A stretch of DNA of 64,000 nucleotides from the NCBI GenBank assembly GCA_041946735.1, contig JBHGAY010000001.1:192001-256000 (forward strand), written 5' to 3'. This stretch comes from Candidatus Eiseniibacteriota bacterium (GTDB lineage: Bacteria; Eisenbacteria; RBG-16-71-46; CAIMUX01; VGJL01). The notes below the pieces were generated by a model. It was not told the DNA's origin and did not search any database. It was given only the letters and a program-made list of their open reading frames with translations. Shown here one piece after another: positions 39,678-55,474 of the stretch; position 1 is the stretch's first letter, and each line of letters starts with the position of its first letter. Made by a program: the position numbers and the translations under genes.

Positions 39678-40244
39678 TTACGTCTCCCGGCTCCGCCGAA
39701 ACGCCCACGACAGGAGGATGGGGTCCCGAGCGGCCTCGGTGCACAGCATCTCCGGCAAGGGCCGGATTCCGATGCGTCCGAGGTCGAGACGGTCCGCGTC
39801 CCAGCAGGTCTGGATCGTCACGTCCGCTTGCAGCTGGCCGTGGCTATGGTCCCGGCAGGCGAAGAGGAGGAGGTCGAGATCCTCCTTCTCGAGCTGGAAG
39901 GCGTTGCCGGCGAGCGAGAGCGCGAAAGCCGCGGCCCGCAGGCCGTGGTCGCGGTCCTCCGTATCCGAGACCCGGCGGGCGTCGTGGATCAGCGCGAACA
40001 GCTCCACGACCGGCTGCTTCGCCCCGGTCAGCGGCGCGAGCCGGATCCCGTTCTCCAGCACCCGCTTCCAATGCGGCCTCCCGTGCACCCCTTCCAGATC
40101 GAGCAGGAACTGGCGTTCGATCGTGGAGAGAAGCAGCGGGTAGCGAATGGTCCCGGGCTGCAGACCGCTGGCCGGGGGGGGCCCGGCCGGCTCTTGACGT
40201 CCGGGCCCGTCGTGAGGCACTCCCGTTTCTCCCGTTTCTTCCAT
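39678..40244 (-). CDS. HD-domain metal-dependent phosphohydrolase
   Basis: HG..HW.RV, IHD, HG.RAA and CWDADRLDL. TGATG coupling to the upstream gene. Confidence 0.85.
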   Translation of the reverse strand: MEETGETGVPHDGPGRQEPAGPPPASGLQPGTIRYPLLLSTIERQFLLDLEGVHGRPHWKRVLENGIRLAPLTGAKQPVVELFALIHDARRVSDTEDRDHGLRAAAFALSLAGNAFQLEKEDLDLLLFACRDHSHGQLQADVTIQTCWDADRLDLGRIGIRPLPEMLCTEAARDPILLSWAFRRSRET

Positions 40245-41680
40245 CACCGGGAACGTATCAGACGGACGGTCGCTCCACCCTTCCCTTCGGTCGTCACGAG
40301 ATACACTCCGGCCGGGACTTCGCGGCCCTGCTCGTCGCGGCCATCCCAGACGACCGTTCCGTCCGGCGCTTCGAGCATCCGGACCCGCCGTCCGGACAGG
40401 TCGACGATCGCAGCCCTCCGTCCCGTCGACAGCCGGATCTCCGTGGCCCGTTGGAACGGATTCGGCACGGCGGCGATCGTAGGGACCGCTGTCGCCGTGA
40501 CGCCCGGCTCCGGGACGGCATCCGGACGGAGCCATGCGATCCGCTTCTTGTAGATCACGCCCTGGAAGCTCGGAAGGAAGCCGACGCACCAGACGTCCGC
40601 CGAGTCCGATACGAGGGGCTCCCAGTCGATCGCCGACATCTCGGCCCCCGTATCCTGATCGAGGTTCCAGCTGTTGCCGCCGTCGAGCGACTCCCAGATT
40701 CCGCCTCCGGCGTTGTTGAAGCGCGTCCCGCCGGCCGCGAAGCCGTGGAAGAGATCGAAGACCTGGACGACGCGGATCGGATAGTTCGTCTGCAGCACCC
40801 TGCCGCTCCAGGTCGCTCCGCCGTCGGAGGAGCGGTGGACCCACCCGCTGACCGGCGCGGAGATCTGTCCCCCGCCCGTCCATCCCAGAATCCCGTCGGC
40901 GAACGAAACGCCGCCGTCGAAGACGTTGTCGACCGAGTGCCGGGAAGACCAGGTAAGGCCGCCGTCGGTGGAGTTGCAGAGCTGGATCCCGGTCACCCAG
41001 GCGCGGAGGGCCGCATCGAACGTGAAGTTGCCTGCGAACCAGCCGCCCGTCGGGTCCGCCTGGATCTTCGTCCAGTCGGCCGCTGTTCGCCCTCCGTTCG
41101 TCGTGACGTAGACATATCCCTGATAGCCGTAAGCGATCCCGTGCATGGAGTCGGCGAAACGAATGTTCAAGAGCCAGTTGGCCGGGTCGAGGACGACGTC
41201 CGGCGACCAGGTCGCGCCACCGTCGTCGGTCCAGCGGAGGATTCCGGCCCCGCTCTGGTTCTGGAATCCCGCGACGACCGCCGTTTGGGCGGAGAAGGCA
41301 TGCACGCCGTACCAGTAGTACGGGAAGCCGACGTTCATCGCCGTCGTCCAGCTCGCGCCCCCGTTGGTCGTGTGGTACACCGCGCCGAGTTCGGCCGACG
41401 CGAAGCCGTTCAAGGGATCGGCAAAGGAAACTCCGGTCAAGACGTTGGAGACGGTTTGCTGCAGGACCCATCCGGTCCGGTCGCCGGTCGGAGCTTCGAC
41501 CGGCTGTTGCACGAAGTCCGGACCTCCCGAGACGGGGATCCTCTGCAGAAGAGCCTCCCCGGCACGAAGGTCGCGGCGCTCGGGGCTGATCGCATCAGCC
41601 TGCGATAGGAGCGGCGAGAGCAGGAGCGACAACAGAATAGAGGAGGAAAGAGCGAGGAGACAGAAGCGTGGAGATCGCAT
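40244..41680 (-). CDS. Secreted YCF48/BNR-repeat beta-propeller with FlgD-Ig-like tail
   Basis: Seven (T/S)x(D/N)GG..W-type repeats; tail PNPF..DLSGRRVR..WDGRDEQG..PAGVY. Confidence 0.88.
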   Translation of the reverse strand: MRSPRFCLLALSSSILLSLLLSPLLSQADAISPERRDLRAGEALLQRIPVSGGPDFVQQPVEAPTGDRTGWVLQQTVSNVLTGVSFADPLNGFASAELGAVYHTTNGGASWTTAMNVGFPYYWYGVHAFSAQTAVVAGFQNQSGAGILRWTDDGGATWSPDVVLDPANWLLNIRFADSMHGIAYGYQGYVYVTTNGGRTAADWTKIQADPTGGWFAGNFTFDAALRAWVTGIQLCNSTDGGLTWSSRHSVDNVFDGGVSFADGILGWTGGGQISAPVSGWVHRSSDGGATWSGRVLQTNYPIRVVQVFDLFHGFAAGGTRFNNAGGGIWESLDGGNSWNLDQDTGAEMSAIDWEPLVSDSADVWCVGFLPSFQGVIYKKRIAWLRPDAVPEPGVTATAVPTIAAVPNPFQRATEIRLSTGRRAAIVDLSGRRVRMLEAPDGTVVWDGRDEQGREVPAGVYLVTTEGKGGATVRLIRSR

Positions 41681-41851
41681 GCTGCACCTCCGGGATTGTC
41701 CGTATTCGGTTGCGGGGCTCGCGCTGGCGGGCCTCCTGAAGCACGCGCAGAAGGATACGGCAGCGGCATGGACCTGTCCATCCACGCTGCGGGCCGCGCT
41801 ACCGCCGGCGACGCAGGCGCGGAGAACCGGGCCAGGGTGGACCGGTCTCCG

Positions 41852-42046
41852 TCAGAAGAAAAGAGACGGCGAGCTCGGGCAGGCGCGAAGCATGAAAAGC
41901 GTTGCGGCGGCGGCCGCGCCAAGGACGAGGAGCAGCAGGCCCACGAGCGCGAACGCAGAGATCCGCGGCCGGGAGACGCGAGACAGGACGAACGGCACCC
42001 GGTCGCGAACCCCGGCCGGGGACTCGCGGCGGAGCTCAGCGCCCAT
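41852..42046 (-). CDS. Possible 64-aa single-TM protein
   Basis: GGAG upstream of the ATG, overlaps the previous stop, TM segment AFALVGLLLLVLGAAAAATLFML. Confidence 0.45.
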   Translation of the reverse strand: MGAELRRESPAGVRDRVPFVLSRVSRPRISAFALVGLLLLVLGAAAAATLFMLRACPSSPSLFF

Positions 42047-42269
42047 CGCGGTCTCCGGCCGGCGCTCCGTCCGTCCCGGTCGCCGCCTGCCGCCGATCCG
42101 GAACGTAACGACGGAAGAAGACGATCCCGTTCAGCTCCTGCTTCGGGAAGTTGCGGTTCGGCCGCCGGCGGTCGCGCAACTTGTACGCCGCGTACGAGCC
42201 AACGGCGAGGACGATCGAAGCGATCGTCGCAACCAGGATCGCCATCGAGAAAAAGCCCATCGCGTTCAT
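42036..42269 (-). CDS. 77-aa single-TM protein (BcsF-like candidate)
   Basis: SD GGAGG, N-terminal TM, basic juxtamembrane stretch and IVFFRRYVP. Confidence 0.7.
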   Translation of the reverse strand: MNAMGFFSMAILVATIASIVLAVGSYAAYKLRDRRRPNRNFPKQELNGIVFFRRYVPDRRQAATGTDGAPAGDRDGR

Positions 42270-42327
42270 CGTCGTCCTCCGGGGCGACGCTCCCGCGCGC
42301 CGCCGGTGCGGGTCCCCCAAGCGAGCT

Positions 42328-43635
42328 TCAGATCCGCCCCCGGCGCTCGAGCTTCCCCCATCCCATCTCGACAGAAAGGGTCTCCTCGACGAGCGCGCCG
42401 ACGCGGCACACGTCGAGGCAGAGCGTGAAGAAGAGTCGGTAGGGGATCGCGTAGGGAACGAGGCGCAGATCCTCCTCCTCGGCGACGACGCAGAAGAGGC
42501 CGGCGACGAGATCGAGGACCGTGAGCTGCAACCACCAGAGCAGCAGCAGGCCACCCGACTGGTAGGCGCTCGCCATGTAGAGCAGCCAGACCTGAGCCAT
42601 GAGGTTGACGAGAGGCCACAGGAGGCCCTCGAAGAGCAGGTGGAGAATCGAAAGCGAAAGCAGCGCGTTGTCGCATCGGATCGCGGGGCGCACCCGCTTC
42701 TTCACCGCCTGCAGCAGGCCGCGCGACCAGCGGTAGCGCTGCTGGAACAGGTCCCGCATTCCCTCCGGGGCTTCCGTGAAAGCGATCGCGTTCGGCTCGT
42801 AGCGCACCCGCCAGCCCCGCTCGAGGATCTTGAGCGTCAGGTCGGCGTCCTCCGCATACGTATCCTCGGAGTATCCGCCCGCCTCGCGCAGCACCCGCCG
42901 CCGGAACATTCCGAAAGGCCCGGGAATGATCGCCACCGAGCGGAAGAACGCTTGCGCGCGCCGCGACATGTTCAGCCCCTCGACGTACTCGAGCGCCTGC
43001 AGCCGCGTCAGGAGGTTCCGCCGGTTCGCAACCTTCACGTTTCCCGCGACGGCGCCGACCTTCGGGTCGCCGAAATGACGCACCGCGGCTCTCAGGCTTC
43101 CTGGCTCGATCCTGGAGTCCCCATCGACGCAGAGGATCAGGTCCTCGTGCGCGGCGGAGATGCCGAGATTCAATGCGCTCGCCTTCCCGCCGTTCGCTTT
43201 GTGCAGCACCCGCACGCGGGTGCCGGAATAGCGTCCCTCCATCGCGCTCGCGCGCAGGAACGTGTCGTCGGTCGAGCCGTCGTCGATCACGAGAATCTCG
43301 AAGCTCGGATAGTCCAGCTCGAGGAGCGATCGGATCGATGCCTGGATCGTCACCGACTCGTTGAATGCGGGCACGAGGATGCTCACCGGCGGCAGCGCCT
43401 GGCACTCCGGCTCCGCCCCCCCCTCGATCCCGTCGAGGTAGGCGAACCACATGAGGATGAAGTGCCGGAGGATCAACACGCAGAGGAAACCGAAGAAGAA
43501 CGCGCCCGCGCCGCGGGTCCAAGCGGGAAGCGCCGGCAGCGGCTGGCGAAAGAGGATGCCGGCCAGAGCGAAACCGAGCGCGACGAAGAAGCCGGCGAGG
43601 AGGACGAGGAGCAGGAAGTAGCGCACTCTCCTCAC
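42328..43635 (-). CDS. Processive GT2 polysaccharide synthase (PgaC/IcaA-like)
   Basis: PAFNE, DDGSTD, NGGKASALN, VDGD, EDADLT and QQRYRW. Two N-terminal and several C-terminal TMs; no PilZ domain. Confidence 0.9.
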   Translation of the reverse strand: MRRVRYFLLLVLLAGFFVALGFALAGILFRQPLPALPAWTRGAGAFFFGFLCVLILRHFILMWFAYLDGIEGGAEPECQALPPVSILVPAFNESVTIQASIRSLLELDYPSFEILVIDDGSTDDTFLRASAMEGRYSGTRVRVLHKANGGKASALNLGISAAHEDLILCVDGDSRIEPGSLRAAVRHFGDPKVGAVAGNVKVANRRNLLTRLQALEYVEGLNMSRRAQAFFRSVAIIPGPFGMFRRRVLREAGGYSEDTYAEDADLTLKILERGWRVRYEPNAIAFTEAPEGMRDLFQQRYRWSRGLLQAVKKRVRPAIRCDNALLSLSILHLLFEGLLWPLVNLMAQVWLLYMASAYQSGGLLLLWWLQLTVLDLVAGLFCVVAEEEDLRLVPYAIPYRLFFTLCLDVCRVGALVEETLSVEMGWGKLERRGRI

Positions 43636-43638
43636 CGG

Positions 43639-45042
43639 CTAATGTCTCCACTCCAGCGCGAGCCGCACGCTCCGCGATTCGTAGCGGGAGATCCGGCGGG
43701 TCGCCGAGATCTCGCCGGTCGCCACCGCGTCGAGCGAAGAGGCGATCGGAGCGCGGAAAGCGAGCTTGCCACCGCCTGCCTCGCCGGACCCCGTCCTGTT
43801 TCCGACGGCGCCGAACCATCCCGACGCGTCGAGGGAGAAGAAGGCCGGGAGCGGAGGCGAGAGATGGATCCAGGCCGCGGCGGTCCATTCGTCCCTGGGC
43901 GCGTAGTAGAGAGAGGAGCCGCGCGAGTAGCCGGTCCACTGGGCGGCGAGAGCGGCGCGCAGAGGCCCCGCAAGCTTCGCGTCGAGCGCAACGTCGCTCG
44001 AGCGGAAGGCGTTTTCGTCGTCCCAGCTTCCCGCGCGCAGGCGCATGTAGAGGCCGGCGCGGGGCGAGAAGGAGAGGTAGCCGGAGAGGCTGCCGTCGAC
44101 CCCTCGCAGGCCCGCCTCCTCCGCCGCAACGCTCTTCAGCTCGTAGCCGCGATCCGCGAAGGCGGCGGCGGCCTGGAGCGAGGCTCGCGCGAGCGGGCGA
44201 GATCGGAAGACAGCGCGAAGGCGCGGGCAGGCGCCGTCCGCCGAGCCGGCGCCCGGAATCGAGACGCCCGCCTCGAACGCGATGGAAGACCGGGGTCCTG
44301 TCGCGATCTCGGTCCCGGCCTGCAGCAACTGCCTCTCCGTCTCGCTCGCGCTCTCTCCCGCGCTCTCTCCCGGCCCAGGCGCGCCGGCTCCATCACGCGT
44401 GAGGCGTTCGCTTCCCGCCGTGATCGTCCACGCGGTGGCCGGCCCCGTGTCGAGCCGCCCGTGGATCGCGAAGGCGCGAGCGCTCACTTCTCCGGAGTCC
44501 TCGAAGAAGTCGACGCTCGCGCGCACGGCCGGATCGCATTCGCGGGCGAGCGACCGTTCGAGAGAGCGCAGATCCTCGTCCTCCGGGTCGAGGCGGCGCA
44601 GGCGACGGACCGACTCGAGCGCCTCGCCCGACCGTCCCGCCCAGCGCAACGCGTTCGTTCGCGCGCGCAGCACCGCCCGGTCCGCGGGCGACTGCCGGAG
44701 CAGATCCTCGTAGAGGGGGATCGCGGCGTCGGGATCCCCTGACCATGCGAGGGCGTTGGCGAGATCGAGGCGCGTGGCGCGGTCTTCTGGATGGCGCACG
44801 AGCCGATTGCGGAACACGGGGATCGCGATCTCCTCGTTGCCCGCCCAGTGTTCGGCGCGCGCGGCGGCCAGGAGGCTGTCCTCAGGGGAACCGACGGCGT
44901 GCGACGGCTGTGCTCCGCGCGCCGGAGAAGCAAGAAGAAGCGAGAGAGCGGCGAGCGCCGCAGCTACGGTGGCATGACGGGTGCGGCCGCGCGCCGGGCG
45001 GCCCGTGACGCGAGCCGGCCGCGCCACGGCGCCCTGCCTCAT
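43639..45042 (-). CDS. TPR + putative outer-membrane beta-barrel protein (PgaA-like architecture)
   Basis: Signal peptide, TPRs (LANALAWSG..A..LY, NALRWAG), amphipathic beta-strand C-terminal half ending VRLALEWRH. ATGA overlap with the upstream gene. Confidence 0.72.
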   Translation of the reverse strand: MRQGAVARPARVTGRPARGRTRHATVAAALAALSLLLASPARGAQPSHAVGSPEDSLLAAARAEHWAGNEEIAIPVFRNRLVRHPEDRATRLDLANALAWSGDPDAAIPLYEDLLRQSPADRAVLRARTNALRWAGRSGEALESVRRLRRLDPEDEDLRSLERSLARECDPAVRASVDFFEDSGEVSARAFAIHGRLDTGPATAWTITAGSERLTRDGAGAPGPGESAGESASETERQLLQAGTEIATGPRSSIAFEAGVSIPGAGSADGACPRLRAVFRSRPLARASLQAAAAFADRGYELKSVAAEEAGLRGVDGSLSGYLSFSPRAGLYMRLRAGSWDDENAFRSSDVALDAKLAGPLRAALAAQWTGYSRGSSLYYAPRDEWTAAAWIHLSPPLPAFFSLDASGWFGAVGNRTGSGEAGGGKLAFRAPIASSLDAVATGEISATRRISRYESRSVRLALEWRH

Positions 45043-46703
45043 GGCGCGACCGCCAGGCGGCGTGTCCCATACGCGGCGAAGCCCGGATACCGGAAGAGGT
45101 CGAATTCCGGCTCCCGGGCGCGCCGCATCACCTCGTCGGGATCGGCGAACGGCACCCCATCGATCGGCTCGACGACGTCGTAGGAGCAGCGGATGTGCGG
45201 CGGCTCCCCGTCCTGCGGCCGCGGCCATTCACGACGCAGCCGGGCGATGAAGCCGAGCGTCCCCTCGATGGTCTCCGCATGCAGCACGACGAGCGCCTCG
45301 CCTGGACAAGGGAAGGTCAGCAGGTCGTCCGGGCGGCTCAAGCACTCGAGATCCGCCGGGATCGAGGCTGGCGTGTCGGACGACGGATCCCACAGGAGCC
45401 GGACCACGCCGAGGCTCCGGGCGAAGGCCCGGGCGTCTTCGCACGCGCTCTGCAAGTGCGTGCGGAACTCTTCCGGCGGCAGCGCTCGGACGCGGGCGAG
45501 CGACAGGAGATCTTCGACGTCGGCCGCCGGCGGAGCGGCCGGCGCGACGAAGAGGCGGCTTGCGTTGCGCACCTTCTCGATCACTTCGCGCAGCTCGAAG
45601 GGCTTCGAGATGAAGTCGTTGCCCCCGAGTGACAGTCCTCGGACGCGTTCGTTGCGATCCTGAATCCCGGAGACGAAGAGGATCGGCTGGTGGAAGCCCG
45701 AGCCGCGGAGGGCGCGGCAGACGTCGAAGCCGCTGAGCTTCGGAAGCTGGACGTCCAGCAGGATCACGTCCGGGGCTTCGCGGACCGTGCGGGTCAGCGC
45801 CTCCACTCCGTCCTCGGCCATCAGCAGGTCGAACTCGCTGCGCAACGCCTTGCGCAGGAGCGAGCGGATGAAGGGGTCGTCGTCGGCGAGCAGCACGCGC
45901 TTGCGCGGGTGCGGCACGGCCGGCGGCCCGGCCGGCCCGCCGCTGGAACGCGGGGCGGAGACTTGCGACGCGCTGGCGCTCGCGCGAGATGTCGAAGCGT
46001 CCCTCTCGCCATCCGCGGTGACGCGCGTCTCGACCAGCCCGGCTCCCGGCACGATCTGGAACGGGATCTTTCGCATCCGGTCCGACGGCTGGCGGAGCTT
46101 GTGGATGAAGAGTCGCTTCGAGGACTCGAGACTCTCGACCTCGTCCTGCAGCTCGAAGATGCCCTGGCAGATGTCGGAGAAGACCCGGTACAGGGACGGA
46201 TGGCCTTGCGTCGCGCCGCGATCGTTGAGGAACAGGGGGGTCCATCCCCATTCGGCCAGCGTCTCCGTGAGATAGCGGAGGTCGTAGCGGAGCCGTCCCT
46301 CCTCGGTGCTGCCTCCGAAGAGGGGATGGATCGGATCGAAGACGATCCGGCGATACGCCGCTTCGGCGCGAAGCTCGGCGAGAGGTTCGAGGAAGCGCTT
46401 CCACCCGTAACGCATCAGCCGGCTTGTCACGTCCTGGTCGTACTCGAGCAGGCAGAGGTCGCCCCGCTCGACGGCCGGGTAGGGATCGAGCGCCAGGCTG
46501 GCTGCCTGCGCGAGGAGGTCGGCCGGGCGCTCGATCGTCATCAGGATCGCCGGCTCCTTCGAGCCTCCTCCGAGCGCGTACTGCAGGCCGAGCAAGGTCT
46601 TGCCGGTCCCCGCCTCGCCGAAGACCAGGTATGGCTTGCCCCGGAAGAACCCTCCGATGTGATCGTCCAGCAGACCGATTCCCGTGCGAAACGTCCCGTC
46701 CAT
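45039..46703 (-). CDS. KaiC/RAD55-like ATPase + receiver + degenerate GGDEF fusion protein
   Basis: TGI..LD..IGG, GEAGTGKT, IVFD and KLR; REC motifs ADDD, LLDV and SKPF; RPDD-LLTFP-CPGEA-LVVL. Confidence 0.85.
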   Translation of the reverse strand: MDGTFRTGIGLLDDHIGGFFRGKPYLVFGEAGTGKTLLGLQYALGGGSKEPAILMTIERPADLLAQAASLALDPYPAVERGDLCLLEYDQDVTSRLMRYGWKRFLEPLAELRAEAAYRRIVFDPIHPLFGGSTEEGRLRYDLRYLTETLAEWGWTPLFLNDRGATQGHPSLYRVFSDICQGIFELQDEVESLESSKRLFIHKLRQPSDRMRKIPFQIVPGAGLVETRVTADGERDASTSRASASASQVSAPRSSGGPAGPPAVPHPRKRVLLADDDPFIRSLLRKALRSEFDLLMAEDGVEALTRTVREAPDVILLDVQLPKLSGFDVCRALRGSGFHQPILFVSGIQDRNERVRGLSLGGNDFISKPFELREVIEKVRNASRLFVAPAAPPAADVEDLLSLARVRALPPEEFRTHLQSACEDARAFARSLGVVRLLWDPSSDTPASIPADLECLSRPDDLLTFPCPGEALVVLHAETIEGTLGFIARLRREWPRPQDGEPPHIRCSYDVVEPIDGVPFADPDEVMRRAREPEFDLFRYPGFAAYGTRRLAVAP

Positions 46704-46976: not shown

Positions 46977-49679
46977 ATGACTCGCTGGATGCCTGCCGCC
47001 GGCCGCGGCCGCCTGGGAGCAGTCTCGCTCGCCATCGCGGCCACCTTGGTATGTGGGATCGAGGGAGTGGTTGCGCGCGCCCCGATCCGGCAATCCTTCT
47101 TCAACGCCTATCCGTCCGCCGTCGGGAGCCGCCTCGACAACCTGCCGAGCATTCAAGGGCACTGCGGCGTCTGTCATTACCAGTTCACGGGGGCCGGCCC
47201 GCGCAATCCGTATGGACAGAGGATCGAAGGGCTGCTCGGCAGCTACCCGAACAACGACGCCGGTCGCCAGCGCCTCATGCACGACATCGAGAACGAGGAT
47301 GCCGACGCGGACGGCTACGCCCAGATCACGGAGATCACCGACCTGATCCACTACGGCAACACTCCGACGTTCCCGGGCTTGACCCCCTCGAACGTAGGCC
47401 AGGTGAGCGGCGTGAACGCACAGGACATTCTGGCCTTCCTCGTCCCGGCAGTGGGCGGAGACGTTCAGGCGCCTACCGTGAATGTGATCTCCCCCAACGG
47501 AGGAGAAAGCTGGCAGGGAGGGACGCAGCACACGATCGCGTGGACCGCCACGGACGACGTCGGAGTCATTTCGATCGACGTCTTCTATCGCGCGACCGAC
47601 GCCGAGCCGTGGACGCCGCTCGCGCTGTCGATCGCGAATGCGGGAACCCTTCCATGGTTCGTGCACAACACGCCTGGATCACGCGCGCTCGTTCTCATCA
47701 AGGCGCGCGACGCCGCCGGCAACGTTGGGCAGGACCTGAGCAACGCCTTCTTCACGATCACCCGCGAGACGGGGTCGACCGCCCCGACGACGCTGCGTGA
47801 CTTCGAGATGCCAGGGACGCACCCGCTCCAGGCCACGGGGCTGCAGGACCGCTCCGGGTGCTCAGGCTGCCACGGAGGGTATGATCCTGCCGTCGAACCG
47901 GAGTTCGTGCAGAAGGGGAGCATGATGGCGCAGGCGATGCGCGATCCGCTCTACTTCGCGACGCTGGTCGTCGCCGAGCAGGATGCGTCGTCCTCCGGCG
48001 ACCTCTGCCTACGCTGCCACACTCCGCTCGGTTGGCTGTCCGGACGAAGCAATCCCACCGACGGCAGCCAACTTACCGCGTTCGATCGCGACGGCGTGAC
48101 CTGCGACTTCTGTCACCGGGGCGTCGACCCGAGTTACGTCTCGGGGCAGTCTCCCTCGGTCGATCTGGAGATTCTCGCTGGTCTCGATGCGGTCCCACCC
48201 GGCTACTCGAACGGAATGTACGTGATCGATCCGCAAGCGCGCCGGCGCGGGCCGTTCGCGGACGTCGTCGCCCCGCATCCATTCCTCGTCTCGCCGTTCC
48301 ACGTCTCCAGCAACTTCTGCGGGACCTGCCACGACGTCTCCAATCCGGTCTTCGAGAAGGTGGCGCAGGGGGATTACGCCCCGGGGCCGCTCGACCAGCC
48401 ACCGGAGACGATCCTCTCCTCGGTGACGCTGCCGGTCGAGCGAACCTACAGCGAGTGGCTCCACAGCGAATTCCCGGGCGGCGTCTACGCTCCGGAGTTC
48501 GCGGGAAACAAGCCGGGCGGATATGTGTCGACCTGCCAGGACTGCCACATGCGCGACGTGAACGGCAAGGGGGCGAACGATCCCAACGCGCCGATCCGTC
48601 CGAACCTCCCGCTCCACGATCAGACGGGAGGCAACTCCTGGGTGCCGACGATCCTCGACGAGATCTATCCGAACGAGGTCGATCCGGCGGCGCAGGCGGC
48701 AGCTTCCGCGCGGGCCGTCTCGATGCTCCAGCTCGCTGCCCTGCTCGATCTCACCGTGACCCAGACGCAGCAAGGGCTTCAGGCCGATTGCCTCGTCACG
48801 AACCGGGCCGGCCACAAGCTGCCGACGGGATACCCCGAGGGACGCAGGATGTGGATCCAGATCCGTGCGTACGACGGGTTCGGTCAATTGGTGTACCAGT
48901 CGGGGGCCTACGATCCCGCGACCGGCGTGTTGATCCAGGACGCGGACGCCGTCGTCTACGAGGCCAAGCCGGGGCTTTCCGGATCCTGGGCAGGGGCGCT
49001 CGGGCTCCCAGCCGGACCTTCCTTCCACTTCGCGCTGAACGACTCGATCTACAAGGACAACCGGATCCCGCCGCGCGGCTTCACGAACGCAGGCTACGCG
49101 ACGTTCGGCGGCGAGCCGGTCGATCCGCACCACGAAGGGCCGGGGCCTCGCTACGCGGACGGGCAGAACTTCGACGTCGCCAGCTACCTTCTGCCCGCCT
49201 CCGCGCGCAAGATCGTCGCGACTCTCTTCTACCAGACGGCGTCGAAGGAGTACGTCGAGTTCCTGCGGGACGAGAACGTGACCGACGACAAGGGCCTGCT
49301 GATGTACAGCCTGTGGCAGAACAATGGAAGGTGCGCTCCGGTGATGATGGTCCGCGACAGCGTCCTCTACGTTCCCGGGGCGGCCGAGGACGGATCGATC
49401 GCCGGGCGGCGTCTCGAGATCGAGGCGTTCCCGAGTCCGTTTACCGACGGGCTGTCGATCCGTATGAACATTCCGCGTCCGCGCGAGCTCAAGGCGGAGA
49501 TCTTCGATCTTCAGGGGCGCCTGGTCTTCCGCCGCGCCTGGCCGCCCATCACCGGAGCGCTCTCGCTCCACTGGGACGGACGGGATGGCGCTGGACGCCC
49601 GGTCGCGCCCGGGATCTATTGGCTCCGCGTGGAATCGGGCGGGCAGGCGCAGACGAAGCGATTGGTCCGCATCTCCTGA
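46977..49679 (+). CDS. Secreted multiheme c-type cytochrome (6 CxxCH) with Ig-like domain and FlgD-Ig-like tail
   Basis: CGVCH, CSGCH, CLRCH, CDFCH, CGTCH and CQDCH; SPNGGE.W Ig-like module; AGHKLPTG; tail PSPF..WDGRDG.G..PGIYW. Confidence 0.9.
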   Translation: MTRWMPAAGRGRLGAVSLAIAATLVCGIEGVVARAPIRQSFFNAYPSAVGSRLDNLPSIQGHCGVCHYQFTGAGPRNPYGQRIEGLLGSYPNNDAGRQRLMHDIENEDADADGYAQITEITDLIHYGNTPTFPGLTPSNVGQVSGVNAQDILAFLVPAVGGDVQAPTVNVISPNGGESWQGGTQHTIAWTATDDVGVISIDVFYRATDAEPWTPLALSIANAGTLPWFVHNTPGSRALVLIKARDAAGNVGQDLSNAFFTITRETGSTAPTTLRDFEMPGTHPLQATGLQDRSGCSGCHGGYDPAVEPEFVQKGSMMAQAMRDPLYFATLVVAEQDASSSGDLCLRCHTPLGWLSGRSNPTDGSQLTAFDRDGVTCDFCHRGVDPSYVSGQSPSVDLEILAGLDAVPPGYSNGMYVIDPQARRRGPFADVVAPHPFLVSPFHVSSNFCGTCHDVSNPVFEKVAQGDYAPGPLDQPPETILSSVTLPVERTYSEWLHSEFPGGVYAPEFAGNKPGGYVSTCQDCHMRDVNGKGANDPNAPIRPNLPLHDQTGGNSWVPTILDEIYPNEVDPAAQAAASARAVSMLQLAALLDLTVTQTQQGLQADCLVTNRAGHKLPTGYPEGRRMWIQIRAYDGFGQLVYQSGAYDPATGVLIQDADAVVYEAKPGLSGSWAGALGLPAGPSFHFALNDSIYKDNRIPPRGFTNAGYATFGGEPVDPHHEGPGPRYADGQNFDVASYLLPASARKIVATLFYQTASKEYVEFLRDENVTDDKGLLMYSLWQNNGRCAPVMMVRDSVLYVPGAAEDGSIAGRRLEIEAFPSPFTDGLSIRMNIPRPRELKAEIFDLQGRLVFRRAWPPITGALSLHWDGRDGAGRPVAPGIYWLRVESGGQAQTKRLVRIS

Positions 49680-49967: not shown

Positions 49968-51629
49968 ATGCGCCGCCGTTCTTTCCCGAGTTTCCCAGCC
50001 GCGCTCCGCGGTCCGTGCCACAGCGTGGCGACCCGTCGCTCCGCAGCTCCGGCGATCCTCTTCCCGCTGGCTCTCGCTCTCGCCCTTGTCACGCAGGGTT
50101 GCGTCGCGTGGCGCGCGCCAAGGAAGCCGATCGAGCAGGTGATGACCGACCGGCATCCCGAAGTGGTCCGGGTCAGCGTGCGAGAGGCGGATGGAGACGT
50201 GAGCCGCCGCCTCGTCATGACTCCGTGGATCGAATCGGACAGCCTGCTCGGCTACGAGGCCGATACCCTGGCCGCGCGATCGAATGTCTATCGGGTGATG
50301 CCTCCGAAGACTCGCGTCGCGATTCCCCTGTCGTCGATCCAGCAGACCGAGATCCGCAAGCCGGCCGTCGGCGCCGGGACGATCATCGTCGGGGCGGTCG
50401 CCGCGGCGCTTCTGGTCGCGGCGCTCACCGCCGACTTCGACACCGGTGGCGACGGTGGCACGCTGAGCGATAGCGGCAACATGGGCAGCTGCCCCGTCGT
50501 ATCGAGCTGGGATGGCTCCCGCTGGAGACTCGACTCGGCGACCTTCGGCGGGGCGATCGCAGAATGCCTCCGGCGCACCGACGTCGATCTGCTCGAGTTC
50601 GCTTCCGCCTCTCCGGACGGGCGGGTACACCTCGCGATGGAGGATCCGCTCGACGAGACGGAGCACGTCGATCGCGTCACGCTCCTCGTGGTCGAGCACG
50701 ATCGCGGCGTTTCGATCGCGCCCGACGCCGAAGGCCGGCTCTGCACGCTCGGTCCGCTCATCGCGCCGCTCTCGGCCGCCGACTTTGCGGGAAACGACGC
50801 GCTCGACCGGGTCGCGGCGCTCGACGACTGGAGCTGGGAATCGGTGCCGGCAATCCGCGACACCTCGGATGCGCAGACACTGCGGGACGGCCTCGTGCTC
50901 CGGTTCCCGTGCCCTTCGGGCGCCAGTCAGGGGAAGCTCGTCGTGGACGGGCGGAACAGCTCCTGGGCGAACTACCTGATGTACGTCTTCGTCGCGGCTC
51001 ACGGAAGCGAAACCGGAGCATGGTACGAGGCGCTCGCCGCCGATCCGGAGAGGGCGCGGCGGGCGATCCCCTTCCTCTTCCGGGATGCCTTCCTGTCGGT
51101 CGAACTCCTCACCGATCAAGGTTGGCGTCCGCAGGGAACGCTGTACGAGGCGGGCCCGGAGGTGCGCAAGCGGCAGGTATGCCGCCTCGATCTCCGTGAT
51201 GCGGCGGGCGAGGAGACGATCGAGGTGCGGGTTCGGTCCCTCCCTTCCTTCTGGGTGATCGACCGGGTGGCGATCGACACGAGTGAGGATGGAGTGATCG
51301 ACGTCCGCGAGATCGAGGCGGAGTCGGCCGCCGACCAGGACGGCAAGGACATCCGGCGATCGATCCGGCGGATCGATGCCGAGGAGTACCGGATGGAGCA
51401 GGGCGACCGCGCCGATCTCGTCTTCGATGCCGGCGGCCCGCCGGCCGAGGGGCGAGCGCGCAGCTTCGTCCTGCAGACGAGCGGGTGGTACTGGATCCAC
51501 AGCCGCGACGATGGCAAGCCGGACATCGCCATGCTCTCCCTCCTCGAGCGGGATCCGGCGGCGCTCGGGCGGCTCGCCGTGGCGCGCGCCAACCGGGCGA
51601 CCGCGCTTCTCTCGCGGGCCCGCCCGTAA
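49968..51629 (+). CDS. Putative lipoprotein of unknown function with GSCP..WDG motif
   Basis: Lipobox-like LVTQGC, an internal hydrophobic helix, GSCPVVSSWDG and SGWY. SD GGAGG. Confidence 0.75.
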   Translation: MRRRSFPSFPAALRGPCHSVATRRSAAPAILFPLALALALVTQGCVAWRAPRKPIEQVMTDRHPEVVRVSVREADGDVSRRLVMTPWIESDSLLGYEADTLAARSNVYRVMPPKTRVAIPLSSIQQTEIRKPAVGAGTIIVGAVAAALLVAALTADFDTGGDGGTLSDSGNMGSCPVVSSWDGSRWRLDSATFGGAIAECLRRTDVDLLEFASASPDGRVHLAMEDPLDETEHVDRVTLLVVEHDRGVSIAPDAEGRLCTLGPLIAPLSAADFAGNDALDRVAALDDWSWESVPAIRDTSDAQTLRDGLVLRFPCPSGASQGKLVVDGRNSSWANYLMYVFVAAHGSETGAWYEALAADPERARRAIPFLFRDAFLSVELLTDQGWRPQGTLYEAGPEVRKRQVCRLDLRDAAGEETIEVRVRSLPSFWVIDRVAIDTSEDGVIDVREIEAESAADQDGKDIRRSIRRIDAEEYRMEQGDRADLVFDAGGPPAEGRARSFVLQTSGWYWIHSRDDGKPDIAMLSLLERDPAALGRLAVARANRATALLSRARP

Positions 51630-51642
51630 GGCAGGGAGGATC

Positions 51643-54126
51643 TTGAGAACGCGCGGGAGGACGCCGCCTCGCGGGCTCTTCTACGCGATCAGCATCGTCG
51701 CGCTGGCGGTCGGCCTGTGGGGGTATCTGCGGCTGCCCGCGATCTCCCTGCCTCCGGCCAGCGTTCTTGCGGAGAAGCTCGATTCCCCGGTCCGCGTCGA
51801 GGGATGGACGGTCCGCGATCGCGCCCAGCTGCGATTCGTGACGCAGTCGATTCCGCCGGGGCGCTCCATCGTGATCGAGCCGGTCGAAGTGGCGACCGGC
51901 GGCGGGCGGCCAGGCCAGCCGGCCGCCCCGCAGACGCGGACGATCACGCTGATTCCCCAGATTCCGACCAGGCAGCGCGCGATCATCCTCGCCGTCGGGC
52001 TCGTCTTCTTCGCGGTCAACCTGCTCGTCTTCGCTCCCCGAATGCGTGACCGCTCCGTCCATGGCTTCTACGCTTCGACGCTCCTCTACGGGACGGCGAT
52101 CCTGATCAATGGCGCCTATCTCCCGACGGGCCCCCTTTGGCCGGACGTGGTCCCTGCGCTGGTCTGGCTGATCGCGCTCGCGCTCCTTCCGGTCCTCTTC
52201 CTTCACATCGCGCTTACCTTTCCCAAGCGCCACCCGCGGCTCGACCGCGTCCCCCCGCTGTTCCCCATCCTGTGGATCGGGATGGCCGGCCTGGCGATCG
52301 CGGAATGTATAGCCCTCCTGGCCTATGGAAGCGACAGGTCGATCGAGCGATGGGTCCTCTTCGCCTCGCTGCGGCACGCGGCGGAATGGCTCGTCCCGCT
52401 CCTCGTGTTCGCCGCGATCGTCCTGCTCTTCCGAGCCTCGTCGCGCCTGGACATTACGCGGCAGCGGCTTCAGGCGCGGTGGCTGCAGTGGGGATTCGCG
52501 ATCGGCGTCCTTCCCTACGTCTTCCTGCGTTCGCTGCCGCGCCTCTTCGGAATGGAGTCGCCGCTGGATCCGGAGTTCGACCGCCTCTTCGAGCTGGCCA
52601 TCCCGGCCGGCTTCACGATGGCGGTCGTGCGCCACCGGCTCTTCGACATCGATCTCGTCGTGCGCCGCAGCGTCCTTTATTCGACCCTCGCGGCGCTTCT
52701 CGCGGCGGTCTACTTCACCCTGACGCTTCTCCTCGGGCGGGTGGCCGGCATCTCCTCGCCCGGCCTCGCCGCAGCGGTGTCGGCGCTGGGAGCCGGCGCC
52801 GCCGTGGCGCTCTTCGCTCCCACGCGCCGCGCCGTCGGCCACTGGATCGACCGGACTCTGTTCAAGCTCCGCACCGATCACGCACGAGAGCTTCGGGCGT
52901 TCGAGGCGTCCCTCGAAGAGGTAGCCGGGCCTCAGGAGGTGGCGGAGAGCCTGCACCGCCTCGTACAGCGCGCGCTCGAACCCCGTCGGGCGCTGGTTCG
53001 CATGCCTGGATCCCAGGGGGAAGACGGGGCTGGCGCAGGGGACCGCGACCTCTGGCCGCCCGAGCAGGCCGAGGCGCTCACGGACGGCCTTCCGACGTGG
53101 ACGATCCGTACGATCTATGCCGCAAGCGAGAGCACCGGAACTCCCGAAGAGGAGTGCGCCGACTATCCGGGCTGGTTGCGCCGTCGTGGCGTCGTGCTCG
53201 CCGTCCCGGTCTTGATCGACTCCTCGGACCCCGGTTGGATCCTGCTTGGCGAGAAGCGGAGCGAGCGCCGCTACATCGACGAGGATCTCCGCCTGCTAAG
53301 GGACGCCGCTCGCGCGGCCGGCGGCGCAGTCGACCGGATCTTGCTGATCCAGCGGGCCGCGGCCGAGGCGGCCGCCGCTCGGCGCCTCGACGAGCTCACG
53401 CGCCTGAAGGACGATTTCCTCGGCCGCGTGGCCCACGACCTGCGAACGCCTCTCACCGCGATCGACTGGTCGCTCCGCAATCTCCAGGACGGGCTCGCCG
53501 GTCCGCTCGCTCCGCGGCAGTCCGACTATCTGCGGTCGATCCGGGCTGCAACCGATCAGCTCGGCCGGCTCGTGAGCAATCTGGTCGAGCTGACGCGCCT
53601 CGACTCCCCGGCGGTCGAGCACCTGATCGAGGCCCTCTCGCTGCGAGAGATCGTCTGCGACGCGCTCGCGATGCTCGCCCCCGTGGCGGCGGAGCGAACC
53701 GTCCGCCTCGAGCTGCGGGCCACCACGCCGCTCCCTCCAGTACGGGCCGACCGGCGCTGCCTCTCCGGCGCGGTCATGAATCTCATCGACAATGCGGTCC
53801 GCTACTCTCCGGACGGTGAGACCGTCGAGGTGTCGATCGAACGCGTGGCGGGCGGCTCCCAGACCCTTACAGTGCGGGATCACGGTCCGGGAGTCGCGCC
53901 CGAGGATCGGGAGACGATCTTCGAGCGATACGGCACCGGGAGGCGCTCCCCCTCGGATCGCCGCCGGGCCGGACTCGGGTTGGGTCTCTACGTCGCGCGA
54001 TGCGGGATCGAGGCGAGCGGAGGATCGATCGCCGTCGACGACCATCCCGAGGGAGGCGCGCGCTTCGTCTTCACCCTGCAGGATTGGAGGGAGGTCTCCG
54101 ATGGGGACGATCCTGATCGTCGATGA
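51643..54126 (+). CDS. Multi-TM sensor histidine kinase with GAF-like domain
   Basis: AHDLRTPL, NLIDNAVRYS, DHGPG and GLGLGL. SD GGAGG precedes TTG 51643. Confidence 0.92.
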   Translation: MRTRGRTPPRGLFYAISIVALAVGLWGYLRLPAISLPPASVLAEKLDSPVRVEGWTVRDRAQLRFVTQSIPPGRSIVIEPVEVATGGGRPGQPAAPQTRTITLIPQIPTRQRAIILAVGLVFFAVNLLVFAPRMRDRSVHGFYASTLLYGTAILINGAYLPTGPLWPDVVPALVWLIALALLPVLFLHIALTFPKRHPRLDRVPPLFPILWIGMAGLAIAECIALLAYGSDRSIERWVLFASLRHAAEWLVPLLVFAAIVLLFRASSRLDITRQRLQARWLQWGFAIGVLPYVFLRSLPRLFGMESPLDPEFDRLFELAIPAGFTMAVVRHRLFDIDLVVRRSVLYSTLAALLAAVYFTLTLLLGRVAGISSPGLAAAVSALGAGAAVALFAPTRRAVGHWIDRTLFKLRTDHARELRAFEASLEEVAGPQEVAESLHRLVQRALEPRRALVRMPGSQGEDGAGAGDRDLWPPEQAEALTDGLPTWTIRTIYAASESTGTPEEECADYPGWLRRRGVVLAVPVLIDSSDPGWILLGEKRSERRYIDEDLRLLRDAARAAGGAVDRILLIQRAAAEAAAARRLDELTRLKDDFLGRVAHDLRTPLTAIDWSLRNLQDGLAGPLAPRQSDYLRSIRAATDQLGRLVSNLVELTRLDSPAVEHLIEALSLREIVCDALAMLAPVAAERTVRLELRATTPLPPVRADRRCLSGAVMNLIDNAVRYSPDGETVEVSIERVAGGSQTLTVRDHGPGVAPEDRETIFERYGTGRRSPSDRRRAGLGLGLYVARCGIEASGGSIAVDDHPEGGARFVFTLQDWREVSDGDDPDRR

Positions 54127-55474
54127 CGACGCGGCGCTCCGGCGCGCCCTCCGCGACCGGCTCGAGTTCTGGGGACACGCCCCGTTCGAGGCGAAAGACG
54201 GTGCGGCAGCGCTCGAGCAGTGCGAAAGGCGGGAGTTCGATCTCGTCCTGCTCGATCTGGCGATGCCGGGAATGGGCGGGCAGGAGGTGCTGGAGGAGCT
54301 GAAGCGGCGCGGTTCGGCCGCGGCGGTCGTCATCTTGACCGCCCACGGCACGATCGGCGCCGCGGTCCAGGCACTGAAAGCCGGGGCGGAGGACTTTCTC
54401 TTGAAGCCTGCGGACTTCGACCTGCTCCGCTCCGTCATCGATCGCGCCTTCGAGTCGCGCAACGCGCGCCGCGTGACGCACGCCCTGCGCGAGGATCGTG
54501 CGGGCGAAGCGGCCGGATTCGTCGAGGCGGCCTCCCCTACGATGCGCAAGCTTCTCGAGACGGCCTCGCGCGCCGCTCAGTCCAACGCGACGATCCTCGT
54601 CACGGGCGAGAGCGGGACCGGCAAGCAGGTTCTCTCCGAATACGTGCACCGGCAGAGCGCGCGCGCGAAGGGGCCGTTCGTCTACATCAACTGCGTCGCC
54701 CTCTCGGACGAGCTGATCGAATCCACCCTCTTCGGGCACGAGAAAGGGGCGTTCACCGGGGCCATCGCTCGCAAGGAAGGGCGCCTCGAGGCGGCGGCGG
54801 GAGGTACCGCCTTCCTCGACGAGGTCGGCGACATCAGCCCTCGTCTGCAGGCGAAGCTGCTCCACTTTCTCGAGACGAACGAGTTCGAGCGCGTCGGCGG
54901 AACCCGCACGATCCGCGTCGACTGCCGGATCATCGCAGCCACCAACCGGGATCTCGACGCCGCCGTCCGGGAGGGACGCTTCCGGCAAGACCTCTACTTC
55001 CGCCTGAACGTGATCCGGCTCGACGTGCCTCCGTTGCGCGCGCGCAAGGAAGACGTCCCGATCCTGGCCGAGGCGTTTCTCGCCCGCTTTGCCGGTGAGC
55101 TGCGGCGACCCGGTCTCGCCTTCACGCCTGCCACGATGCGCCTGCTCGCGCAGTATCCGTGGCCGGGCAACGTCCGGCAGCTCCGCAACTCGATCGAACG
55201 CATGGCCGTCCTGGCGACCGGCGCCGCTCTCGATCCCGATCTGCTGCCTCCCGAGCTGTTCACGGTGGAGATCGGAGGGATCGAGCCGAGGACCGAGGGG
55301 CGAGGCGCGCCGGCGGGCGGGGCGCTGCCCTTGCGGGAGGCCATGCAGGACTTCAAACGGGAGTACATCCGGCAGGCTCTCGCTCGCGCGGGGGGGAACC
55401 AGACCCGAGCCGCCGAGGCGCTCGGCCTGCAACGGACCTTCTTGAACCGCTTGATCCGCGAAATGGGGCTGTGA
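54101..55474 (+). CDS. Sigma54-dependent NtrC-family response regulator
   Basis: REC domain, GESGTGKQ, GAFTGA, FLDEVGD, WPGNVRQL and a Fis-type HTH. Confidence 0.95.
   Translation: MGTILIVDDDAALRRALRDRLEFWGHAPFEAKDGAAALEQCERREFDLVLLDLAMPGMGGQEVLEELKRRGSAAAVVILTAHGTIGAAVQALKAGAEDFLLKPADFDLLRSVIDRAFESRNARRVTHALREDRAGEAAGFVEAASPTMRKLLETASRAAQSNATILVTGESGTGKQVLSEYVHRQSARAKGPFVYINCVALSDELIESTLFGHEKGAFTGAIARKEGRLEAAAGGTAFLDEVGDISPRLQAKLLHFLETNEFERVGGTRTIRVDCRIIAATNRDLDAAVREGRFRQDLYFRLNVIRLDVPPLRARKEDVPILAEAFLARFAGELRRPGLAFTPATMRLLAQYPWPGNVRQLRNSIERMAVLATGAALDPDLLPPELFTVEIGGIEPRTEGRGAPAGGALPLREAMQDFKREYIRQALARAGGNQTRAAEALGLQRTFLNRLIREMGL

Follow-up and report, generated by a model that had tools for sequence, protein, structure and literature searches.

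A probable Pga-type exopolysaccharide secretion operon with a KaiC, receiver and degenerate GGDEF regulator in a Candidatus Eiseniibacteriota genome

The window analysed here is a stretch of 64,000 nucleotides (nt) from a Candidatus Eiseniibacteriota bacterium (GenBank assembly GCA_041946735.1, contig JBHGAY010000001.1, positions 192,001 to 256,000), and positions given without a locus label refer to it. Between 41852 and 46703 the open reading frame (ORF) list places five co-oriented, closely packed ORFs on the minus strand, termed A to E, which probably make up a Pga-type operon for synthase-dependent exopolysaccharide secretion, joined by a cytoplasmic regulator. The genes and their main features are as follows.

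45039..46703, minus strand: gene A, 554 amino acids (aa), a cytoplasmic three-domain regulator consisting of a KaiC-type ATPase, a receiver (REC) and a degenerate GGDEF domain
46038..46688, minus strand: KaiC/RecA-like P-loop ATPase domain of A, residues 6-222
46596-46619, minus strand: Walker A motif GEAGTGKT of A
45567..45896, minus strand: receiver domain of A, residues 270-379
45744-45761, minus strand: LLDVQL of A, which contains the phospho-acceptor D317
45066..45518, minus strand: degenerate GGDEF domain of A, residues ~396-546
45324-45335, minus strand: inhibitory-site (I-site) motif RPDD of A, translation checked
43639..45042, minus strand: gene B, 467 aa, a predicted export porin with a signal peptide, tetratricopeptide repeats (TPRs) and an outer-membrane beta-barrel
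44536-44886, minus strand: TPR region of B, ~3.5 repeats
43645-44529, minus strand: predicted 16-strand beta-barrel of B
42328..43635, minus strand: gene C, 435 aa, a membrane-embedded, processive-type family 2 glycosyltransferase (GT2) synthase
42036..42269, minus strand: gene D, 77 aa, with a transmembrane helix at the N-terminus, a basic stretch beside the membrane, and the motifs FFRRY and, in the tail, TGTDG
41852..42046, minus strand: remnant of gene E, 64 aa, a truncated gene for a carbohydrate esterase family 4 (CE4) polysaccharide deacetylase, of which the membrane anchor at the N-terminus is left

Genes A and B overlap in an ATGA (45039-45042), B and C are separated by 3 nt (43636-43638) and C and D by 58 nt (42270-42327), with D and E overlapping by 11 nt (42036-42046). 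An initial annotation had described five co-oriented minus-strand genes with these overlaps and gaps, in agreement with both the ORF coordinates and the junction sequence. Genes A to D are all full-length and uninterrupted with their catalytic motifs intact, and in a window of ~68% G+C the third-position G+C content (GC3) of A and C (0.86-0.89) is of the coding type. A scan for sigma-70 promoters and intrinsic terminators returned one of each, at or below the shuffle expectation and away from gene boundaries, and is uninformative for this phylum.

The product of gene A is a KaiC-REC-degenerate GGDEF protein. Its N-terminal part matches the Pfam KaiC family PF06745 with 104.8 bits (cut-off 26.6) and its central part Response_reg PF00072 with 84.2 bits, while residues 385-554 have no Pfam match and leave the GGDEF family PF00990 unscored. 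The AlphaFold2 (AF2) model has a mean predicted local distance difference test (pLDDT) value of 83. A collection of 5.8 billion proteins yields 18 full-length homologues, the closest named one being 54% identical and labelled Candidatus Eisenbacteria, and their N-termini agree with the start of A at 46703. Invariant across the 18 are the Walker A residues of GxxGxGK[ST] (G29, G32, G34 and K35) and D123, as are the receiver residues, namely the acidic triad D274-D276, D317, S345 and K367, so that A has the acidic pocket, phospho-acceptor aspartate, Ser/Thr and lysine of a receiver domain. D460, within an R-P-[ED]-D motif, is likewise invariant.

For the C-terminal domain of A a profile was built from 15 loci, which matches nine GGDEF chains of the PDB at E<1e-3 and PelD weakly (E 0.23). 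In this comparison the RxxD of A aligns on the I-site of WspR-type cyclases, and the spacing of RPDD, five residues and CPGEA is in the same register as the RxxD-5-GG(D/E)EF of those enzymes. CPGEA, which occupies the GG(D/E)EF position, varies among homologues; the signature of an active diguanylate cyclase is not kept and A should therefore not make cyclic di-GMP (c-di-GMP). Comparison with GGDEF structures in the protein Atlas gives template modelling (TM) scores of 0.62-0.69. The degenerate GGDEF domain, with its I-site in register, is most likely a c-di-GMP receptor like those of BcsE, PelD and PssE. Searches with whole A are dominated by its other domains: Foldseek and VIA-align lists for the complete model are filled by KaiC and receiver chains, none of them informative on the C-terminal domain or on BcsE, and a contig scan with the full regulator alignment listed 80 generic response regulators, in which receiver-domain patterns dominated. 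A circadian KaiC, defined by two tandem KaiC domains and an equivalog score, is ruled out by the single KaiC domain of A and by 72 bits against NF006799, whose equivalog cut-off is 408.

Gene B encodes a protein which matches TPR families in Pfam and whose AF2 model (pLDDT 77.7) consists of a signal peptide, seven helices and then 16 strands. The top five Foldseek matches of this model in the PDB are all polysaccharide exporters, comprising BcsC (9b8a at 3.7e-15, 9b8h and 6tzk), PelBC (9h80) and the PgaA barrel (4y25 at 4.2e-11), and ordinary porins begin only at 2e-8, approximately three or more orders of magnitude weaker. The barrel has no Pfam family. Its profile found 40 proteins at E<=1e-3 in an exhaustive search of 1.84 billion representatives, and TPRs precede the barrel in all 18 relatives scanned by Pfam. 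The closest named relative of B is a 99%-identical partial copy labelled Candidatus Eisenbacteria; a word-index search with B returned a near-copy of B and TPR proteins, and nothing else. Against PgaA itself the sequence signal is confined to the repeats, with 26.7 bits to the PgaA equivalog TIGR03939 (cut-off 366.65) from the TPR part only, and an hhalign probability of 10.6% to E. coli PgaA over 79 TPR columns only. B thus combines, in its predicted fold, the periplasmic TPR region and C-terminal 16-strand barrel that characterise the PgaA, BcsC and PelB porins, and on this model it is a polysaccharide export porin.

Among NCBIfam models, gene C scores highest with PgaC_IcaA TIGR03937 (213.6 bits), followed by NodC (120) and CelA (75.6), with weak matches to HpnI and several non-processive models. 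It is 32% identical to E. coli PgaC over 255 residues (E 3e-47). The motifs DDGSTD, DGDS, AEDAD and QRYRW are invariant in 11 sequences, and together with flanking transmembrane segments they give C the D, DxD, ED and Q(Q/R)xRW pattern of a processive membrane GT2. In a tree of 22 rows rooted on ArnC, from which IcaA, Alg8 and PssC were absent and in which BcsA and NfrB form long branches, C and its relatives are a clade (support 100/97) whose sister (87/71) consists of ~1,130-aa proteins fusing a glycoside hydrolase family 18 (GH18) domain, a CE4 domain and a GT2. Both group with PgaC, BcsA and NfrB (98/98), leaving NodC, HasA and ArnC outside. By sequence C is accordingly classed as a processive-type synthase, near PgaC though not within the PgaC clade, and at E<=1e-20 it is the sole gene of this type in the genome. 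The sister fusions are encoded at L155 3820-7269, L156 3844-7215 and L157 2670-6077 (L and a number denote a related locus or contig record, G and a number a genome), on plasmid records of Deinococcus, Sulfitobacter and Prevotella; the GH18-like domain is scored in two of the three, and the Deinococcus fusion gene adjoins a diguanylate cyclase gene.

These results bear out several claims of the initial annotation, which had read A as a KaiC-REC-degenerate GGDEF protein (now confirmed by Pfam scores, PDB profile matches and Atlas TM scores) and C as a PgaC-like D,D,D,QxxRW GT2 without a PilZ domain (in line with the NCBIfam ranking and invariant motifs). It had also named outcomes that would count against its reading. 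Neither a 43639-45042 product devoid of a beta-barrel nor a grouping of C with lipid transferases was found: the AF2 model has 16 strands and Foldseek agrees, and the tree, in which IcaA is not sampled, places C among processive synthases and apart from the lipid transferase ArnC (98/98).

Gene D, preceded by a Shine-Dalgarno sequence (GGAGGA) 5 nt 5' of its ATG, encodes a one-helix membrane protein with the basic juxtamembrane stretch AYKLRDRRRPNR. It is 57-62% identical in four other genomes, and is conserved more than B. No Pfam or NCBIfam family matches it, and any likeness to PgaD would lie in position and size alone. A complex prediction for C with D scored 0.02 against a mark of 0.32, which weighs neither for nor against binding. 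D would represent a new family of small synthase partners.

The TGTDG motif in the tail of D recurs elsewhere. TGTD(G) ends the regulator in seven loci, two of them holding paralogues unlinked to the operon, and lies in the cytoplasmic tail of D in six loci. The sites are as follows.

Window: 42066-42080 (tail of D)
L098: 8886 and 11756
L099: 8774 and 11629
L100: 8966
L101: 8621 and 11654
L103: 587
L107: 9462
L116: 562
L117: 1886 and 3464

Synonymous codons vary at these sites, so it is the peptide itself that is conserved. A nucleotide-level signal at the A/B overlap is ruled out both by these varied codons and by the paralogues, which have no downstream B. TGTDG may serve for docking or as a target of Ser/Thr phosphorylation. 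It is absent from the Gemmatimonadales-type proteins. A loss by frameshift in the A of the window was also considered and rejected, no other frame encoding the motif.

The fifth gene is identified by comparison with related loci. Directly 3' of D, L098, L099 and L101 each carry one long gene whose product of ~620-637 aa has an N-terminal anchor and a CE4 domain (PF01522 50-52 bits, cut-off 23.1). In L100 the gene after D is an open frame whose N-terminus has a matching membrane anchor, a candidate fourth deacetylase gene, and a CE4 deacetylase is also encoded in the L140 locus. E aligns with the first ~75 residues of the L098 (635 aa) and L099 (620 aa) products at 40% and 46% identity, ends after the anchor region and has no CE4 domain, the remaining deacetylase sequence being absent. 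As a free-standing gene it has no tblastn match in the related loci, nor any Pfam or NCBIfam family. On this alignment E is the N-terminal stub of a CE4 deacetylase. Of four related genomes at least three carry this gene 5 intact, and the ancestral operon therefore had all four Pga functions plus the regulator. The initial annotation had counted two small membrane proteins, of which only D stands as such. Its statement that the locus has no PgaB deacetylase is correct insofar as the window holds a stub without CE4; this absence, however, results from deletion, at least three of the four relatives carrying the CE4 gene.

The arrangement is conserved beyond the window. Within the phylum, A-like proteins occur in 17 of 206 genomes, namely the genome of the window, three of the five other genomes of its family and 13 from other families of the same order; the remaining two family genomes have no match to A. 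Four other genomes of the order, from three families, share the arrangement A-B-C-D. A metagenome-contig scan with D found 38 loci encoding a D relative, with C directly upstream in 30 of the 32 loci where there is room to see, a KaiC-type gene upstream in 8 of 8 and a deacetylase downstream in 14 of 23. Exceptions are L129, where the regulator directly precedes D, and L148, which has D without C. The neighbourhood survey proposed in the initial annotation thus returned a conserved order, A-B-C-D in the four genomes and C-D in 30 of 32 metagenome loci, and the arrangement is not due to chance. In L117 (203-3499), an Eisenbacteria-type metagenome contig, regulator, synthase and D follow in sequence with no porin gene.

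The core of regulator, synthase and D is found on metagenome contigs of both Candidatus Eisenbacteria and Gemmatimonadales. One cluster labelled Gemmatimonadales is annotated just as 'ATPase domain-containing protein' and 'tetratricopeptide repeat protein'. The regulator of the wider metagenome relatives keeps Walker A, with a decayed receiver and an RxxSGD out of register. Receiver state is graded between clades: the Eisenbacteria proteins keep all three sites, and the Gemmatimonadales relatives, like the paralogue family described below, have no phospho-acceptor. In the Gemmatimonadales-type loci L144 and L146 the operon stops at D and is followed by genes that are unrelated according to Pfam, and L145 and L147 have no deacetylase match; ending at D in these loci, the four-gene operon is therefore a natural form.

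Two further contexts show the regulator outside the operon. G015, of the same family as the genome of the window, encodes at L102 9472-10506 (minus strand) only a 344-aa protein with a receiver and a degenerate GGDEF domain, TRPED and an NGTDGP tail, lying between an ispH-like gene and a homologue of the window gene 40244-41785. The KaiC domain and genes B to E are gone, and G015 looks like a later stage in the loss of the same locus. A ~30%-identical paralogue with KaiC, degenerate receiver and degenerate GGDEF domains is encoded in ten genomes of a fourth family (L103-L112, for example L107 7806-9482). It carries an R[NSET]GD motif, the RxGD form of BcsE, and a decayed receiver, and in most cases its tail is RRWGT. 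Its neighbours in L104 and L107 are, according to Pfam, housekeeping genes (Maf, a sodium:solute symporter, a TilS-like gene and FtsH), and in none of the ten loci is there a B, C or D match nearby. The paralogue is a BcsE-style protein without a polysaccharide operon.

The genes flanking the operon, 46977-49679 (plus strand) and 40244-41785 (minus strand), encode an alike C-terminal segment of ~60-90 aa. In the 900-aa protein, which also has many CxxCH haem motifs, this segment is FlgD Ig-like, and the 513-aa downstream protein has no Pfam family. The tail, also seen in related loci, is probably a secretion or sorting domain. Approximately 5 kb upstream of the regulator gene, 51376-55474 (plus strand) encodes a histidine kinase of 916 aa together with a sigma-54 activator of the NtrC type, and the two resemble a pair; this closest histidine kinase (51376-54126) adjoins its own NtrC-type regulator. 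Five GGDEF-domain genes in the genome indicate that c-di-GMP signalling is present.

The domains, folds, motifs, conserved linkage and truncation of E are what the sequence shows. By analogy with the Pga, Bcs, Pel and Pss systems, roles can be proposed for A to D and for gene 5, and with them a ligand, phosphorylation, ATPase activity, protein contacts and a polymer. C, an inner-membrane processive GT2, would polymerise a sugar, most likely N-acetylglucosamine (GlcNAc), and move the chain across the membrane, with D acting as its presumed one-helix partner in the place held elsewhere by PgaD, IcaD or BcsF. B would take the polymer across the outer membrane as a minimal TPR and 16-strand barrel porin. 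In relatives the chain would be partly deacetylated by the gene-5 product, a periplasmic CE4 deacetylase with a membrane anchor; in this genome the gene is cut to a 64-aa anchor, and the polymer would therefore be fully acetylated or served by another CE4 enzyme, or the system may be failing here. A would be the switch. Its degenerate GGDEF domain would hold c-di-GMP at R457-D460, its receiver would take a phosphoryl group at D317 from a histidine kinase, and its KaiC-type domain, with Walker A and B kept, may bind or hydrolyse ATP and drive oligomerisation, so that phosphorelay, c-di-GMP and ATP inputs would combine to turn the synthase on.

Several observations weigh against this reading. 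The PgaC_IcaA score of C lies below the equivalog cut-off (213.6 versus 422.3 bits) and C falls outside the sampled PgaC clade, which leaves beta-1,6-GlcNAc as a candidate product. With hhalign, D matches neither E. coli PgaD (probability 0.2%) nor E. coli BcsF (0.6%), and the A1 and A4 profiles of A give probabilities of at most 1% with E. coli BcsE, so that no sequence homology is detected. The operon contains no cognate histidine kinase. The degenerate receiver and the non-canonical RxxSGD of the Gemmatimonadales-type relatives imply that c-di-GMP binding may not be family-wide. Finally, the deacetylase of this genome is truncated and its A, unlike most relatives, has no TGTDG at the C-terminus, and with the G015 remnant these suggest that the locus may be decaying in this lineage.

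Taken to its end, that last suggestion would make the locus a remnant in which the deacetylase has been deleted, the polymer is neither processed nor exported and four genes are drifting towards loss, a reading considered rather unlikely. E. coli pgaB mutants keep PNAG (poly-beta-1,6-GlcNAc) in the periplasm. With E reduced to 64 aa, the only other CE4 match in the genome, which is 94.8% complete, is weak (34.6 bits over 91 aa); the tail of A is missing, G015 retains just its 344-aa receiver and degenerate GGDEF remnant, and two of five other family genomes are without a match. Against decay stand four full-length, uninterrupted genes with intact catalytic motifs and a GC3 of 0.86-0.89 for A and C, and the natural four-gene form of L144-L147 argues likewise. 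A product other than PNAG, whether another beta-glycan such as a chitin-like beta-1,4-GlcNAc or a polymer of a different sugar, is a possibility, though the less likely outcome. The position of C outside the PgaC clade and below the equivalog cut-off favours it, as do the fusion of the sister clade to a GH18 (chitinase-family) domain and the absence of a Pfam match to the PgaB-type C-terminal hydrolase domain in the relatives' deacetylase. PgaC_IcaA is, on the other hand, by far the top-scoring family model for C, and the CE4 deacetylase that goes with the synthase, both as an operon neighbour and within the sister fusions, is in keeping with an N-acetylated sugar.

Control of the synthase could also bypass c-di-GMP, with the degenerate GGDEF domain serving as a dimerisation or output module and regulation occurring through phosphorylation and ATP alone. 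The domain is unrecognised by PF00990, its I-site is predicted from sequence, and the R-x-x-S-G-D of Gemmatimonadales-type relatives is out of the canonical register. In the Eisenbacteria-type proteins, however, RxxD is in exact register with D460 invariant in 18, the paralogue family of sister genomes carries R[NSET]GD, and dead-GGDEF I-site receptors are a known solution in the Bcs and Pel systems (PMC7439463). Such a c-di-GMP-blind regulator is considered distinctly unlikely. That C is instead a non-processive or lipid-linked glycosyltransferase, in which case the locus would not be a synthase-dependent secretion system, is highly improbable: GT2 is a very broad family and C has its weak matches to HpnI and several non-processive models, but there is no variation in QRYRW, ED or the two Asp motifs upstream of them, the tree puts C with processive synthases and apart from ArnC, and C is linked to the polysaccharide porin B. 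A Pga-type exopolysaccharide secretion operon with an added regulator remains the probable reading of the locus.

Of the known routes to biofilm matrix polymers, the main ones are synthase-dependent exopolysaccharide systems, including those for cellulose, PNAG, Pel and alginate, and to our knowledge each senses c-di-GMP in its own way. To these the locus adds a variant, found in two soil phyla that have been little studied, which combines a Pga-type machine with a regulator on the three-domain plan of BcsE. Its points of interest are this intact-looking BcsE-style regulator and the graded receiver decay across clades. The functional-looking ATPase and receiver of A could reveal the roles of those domains before their enterobacterial decay, and the system could show how ATP, phosphorelay and c-di-GMP inputs combine on one synthase. 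In B (467 aa) it further offers a TPR-porin of very small size, and in D a candidate new small-partner family. The truncation of the deacetylase, like the natural four-gene forms, is relevant to whether export needs deacetylation.

The locus has four functions in common with PgaABCD of E. coli: a porin made of TPRs and a 16-strand barrel, a deacetylase of family CE4 (found in relatives), a GT2 that resembles PgaC and lacks PilZ, and a small membrane partner whose gene comes immediately 3' of the synthase gene. It differs in gene order, which is porin, synthase, small protein and deacetylase rather than pgaA-B-C-D, and in its individual components. At 467 aa, B is roughly half as long as PgaA (807 aa), and C is 32% identical to PgaC and below the equivalog cut-off. 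PgaD has two helices, whereas D has one and no similarity to it. The relatives' deacetylase is membrane-anchored, with no PgaB C-terminal domain detected. A large cytoplasmic regulator heads the operon and the deacetylase is truncated in this genome. The initial annotation had proposed a hybrid in which a BcsE/F-like pair controls a Pga-like core; its identification of a synthase-dependent exopolysaccharide locus holds, and a full set of Pga-type functions to which a regulator has been added describes the system better than a hybrid. An operon census (PMC7112194) mentions divergent environmental pga arrangements without detectable pgaB and pgaD. Searches of the full-text literature found no published account of a pga-like operon that has a KaiC-type regulator, although the supplementary figures of that census may overlap with this family, and the earlier remark that no described system has this layout agrees with this.

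The closest architectural parallel to A is BcsE. As described in PMC7439463, its N-terminal domain is predicted to be RecA-like, is overlaid on KaiC with its Walker A decayed, and is followed by a phosphotransfer-incompetent receiver and a degenerate GGDEF domain binding c-di-GMP through RxxD. A has the same three-fold order of RecA/KaiC-like, receiver and GGDEF domains with an RxxD I-site, and likewise heads an exopolysaccharide operon that also encodes a one-helix membrane protein of ~60-80 aa. It keeps, however, Walker A, Walker B and all phospho-acceptor residues, sites described as degenerate in BcsE (PMC7439463), and goes with a PgaC-like synthase where BcsE goes with BcsA. No BcsQ, BcsR, BcsG, BcsB or BcsZ is present with A, and no GIL domain was matched in it by Pfam at E<=0.1. 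The BcsE/F-like pair of the initial annotation therefore survives as a likeness of architecture, hhalign finding nothing between A and BcsE or D and BcsF. A bolder and quite improbable proposal is that KaiC-REC-degenerate GGDEF proteins are the working form of the BcsE design, that is, an ATP-driven, phosphorylation-gated c-di-GMP receptor which would oligomerise at the synthase, with TGTDG as a docking or KaiC-type Ser/Thr phosphorylation site tethering the regulator to the synthase complex; the graded receiver loss across clades would then form a series from a PleD-like ancestor to a BcsE-like scaffold.

PelD and PssE offer a parallel in mode of action, each being a dead-GGDEF c-di-GMP receptor which keeps its I-site and activates a polysaccharide synthase without PilZ. 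PelD differs from A in being membrane-anchored, with a GAF domain and no ATPase or receiver domain, and PssE, of the Listeria Pss system, is a stand-alone domain protein that has neither of these domains. By sequence, both C-terminal domains of A are best matched by response-regulator diguanylate cyclases of the PleD/WspR type, which likewise have a receiver and then a GGDEF domain bearing an RxxD I-site. A differs from them in its CPGEA for GG(D/E)EF and its extra N-terminal KaiC-type ATPase domain. Set among these systems, the conserved locus is a further form of a known kind of system rather than a categorically new one.

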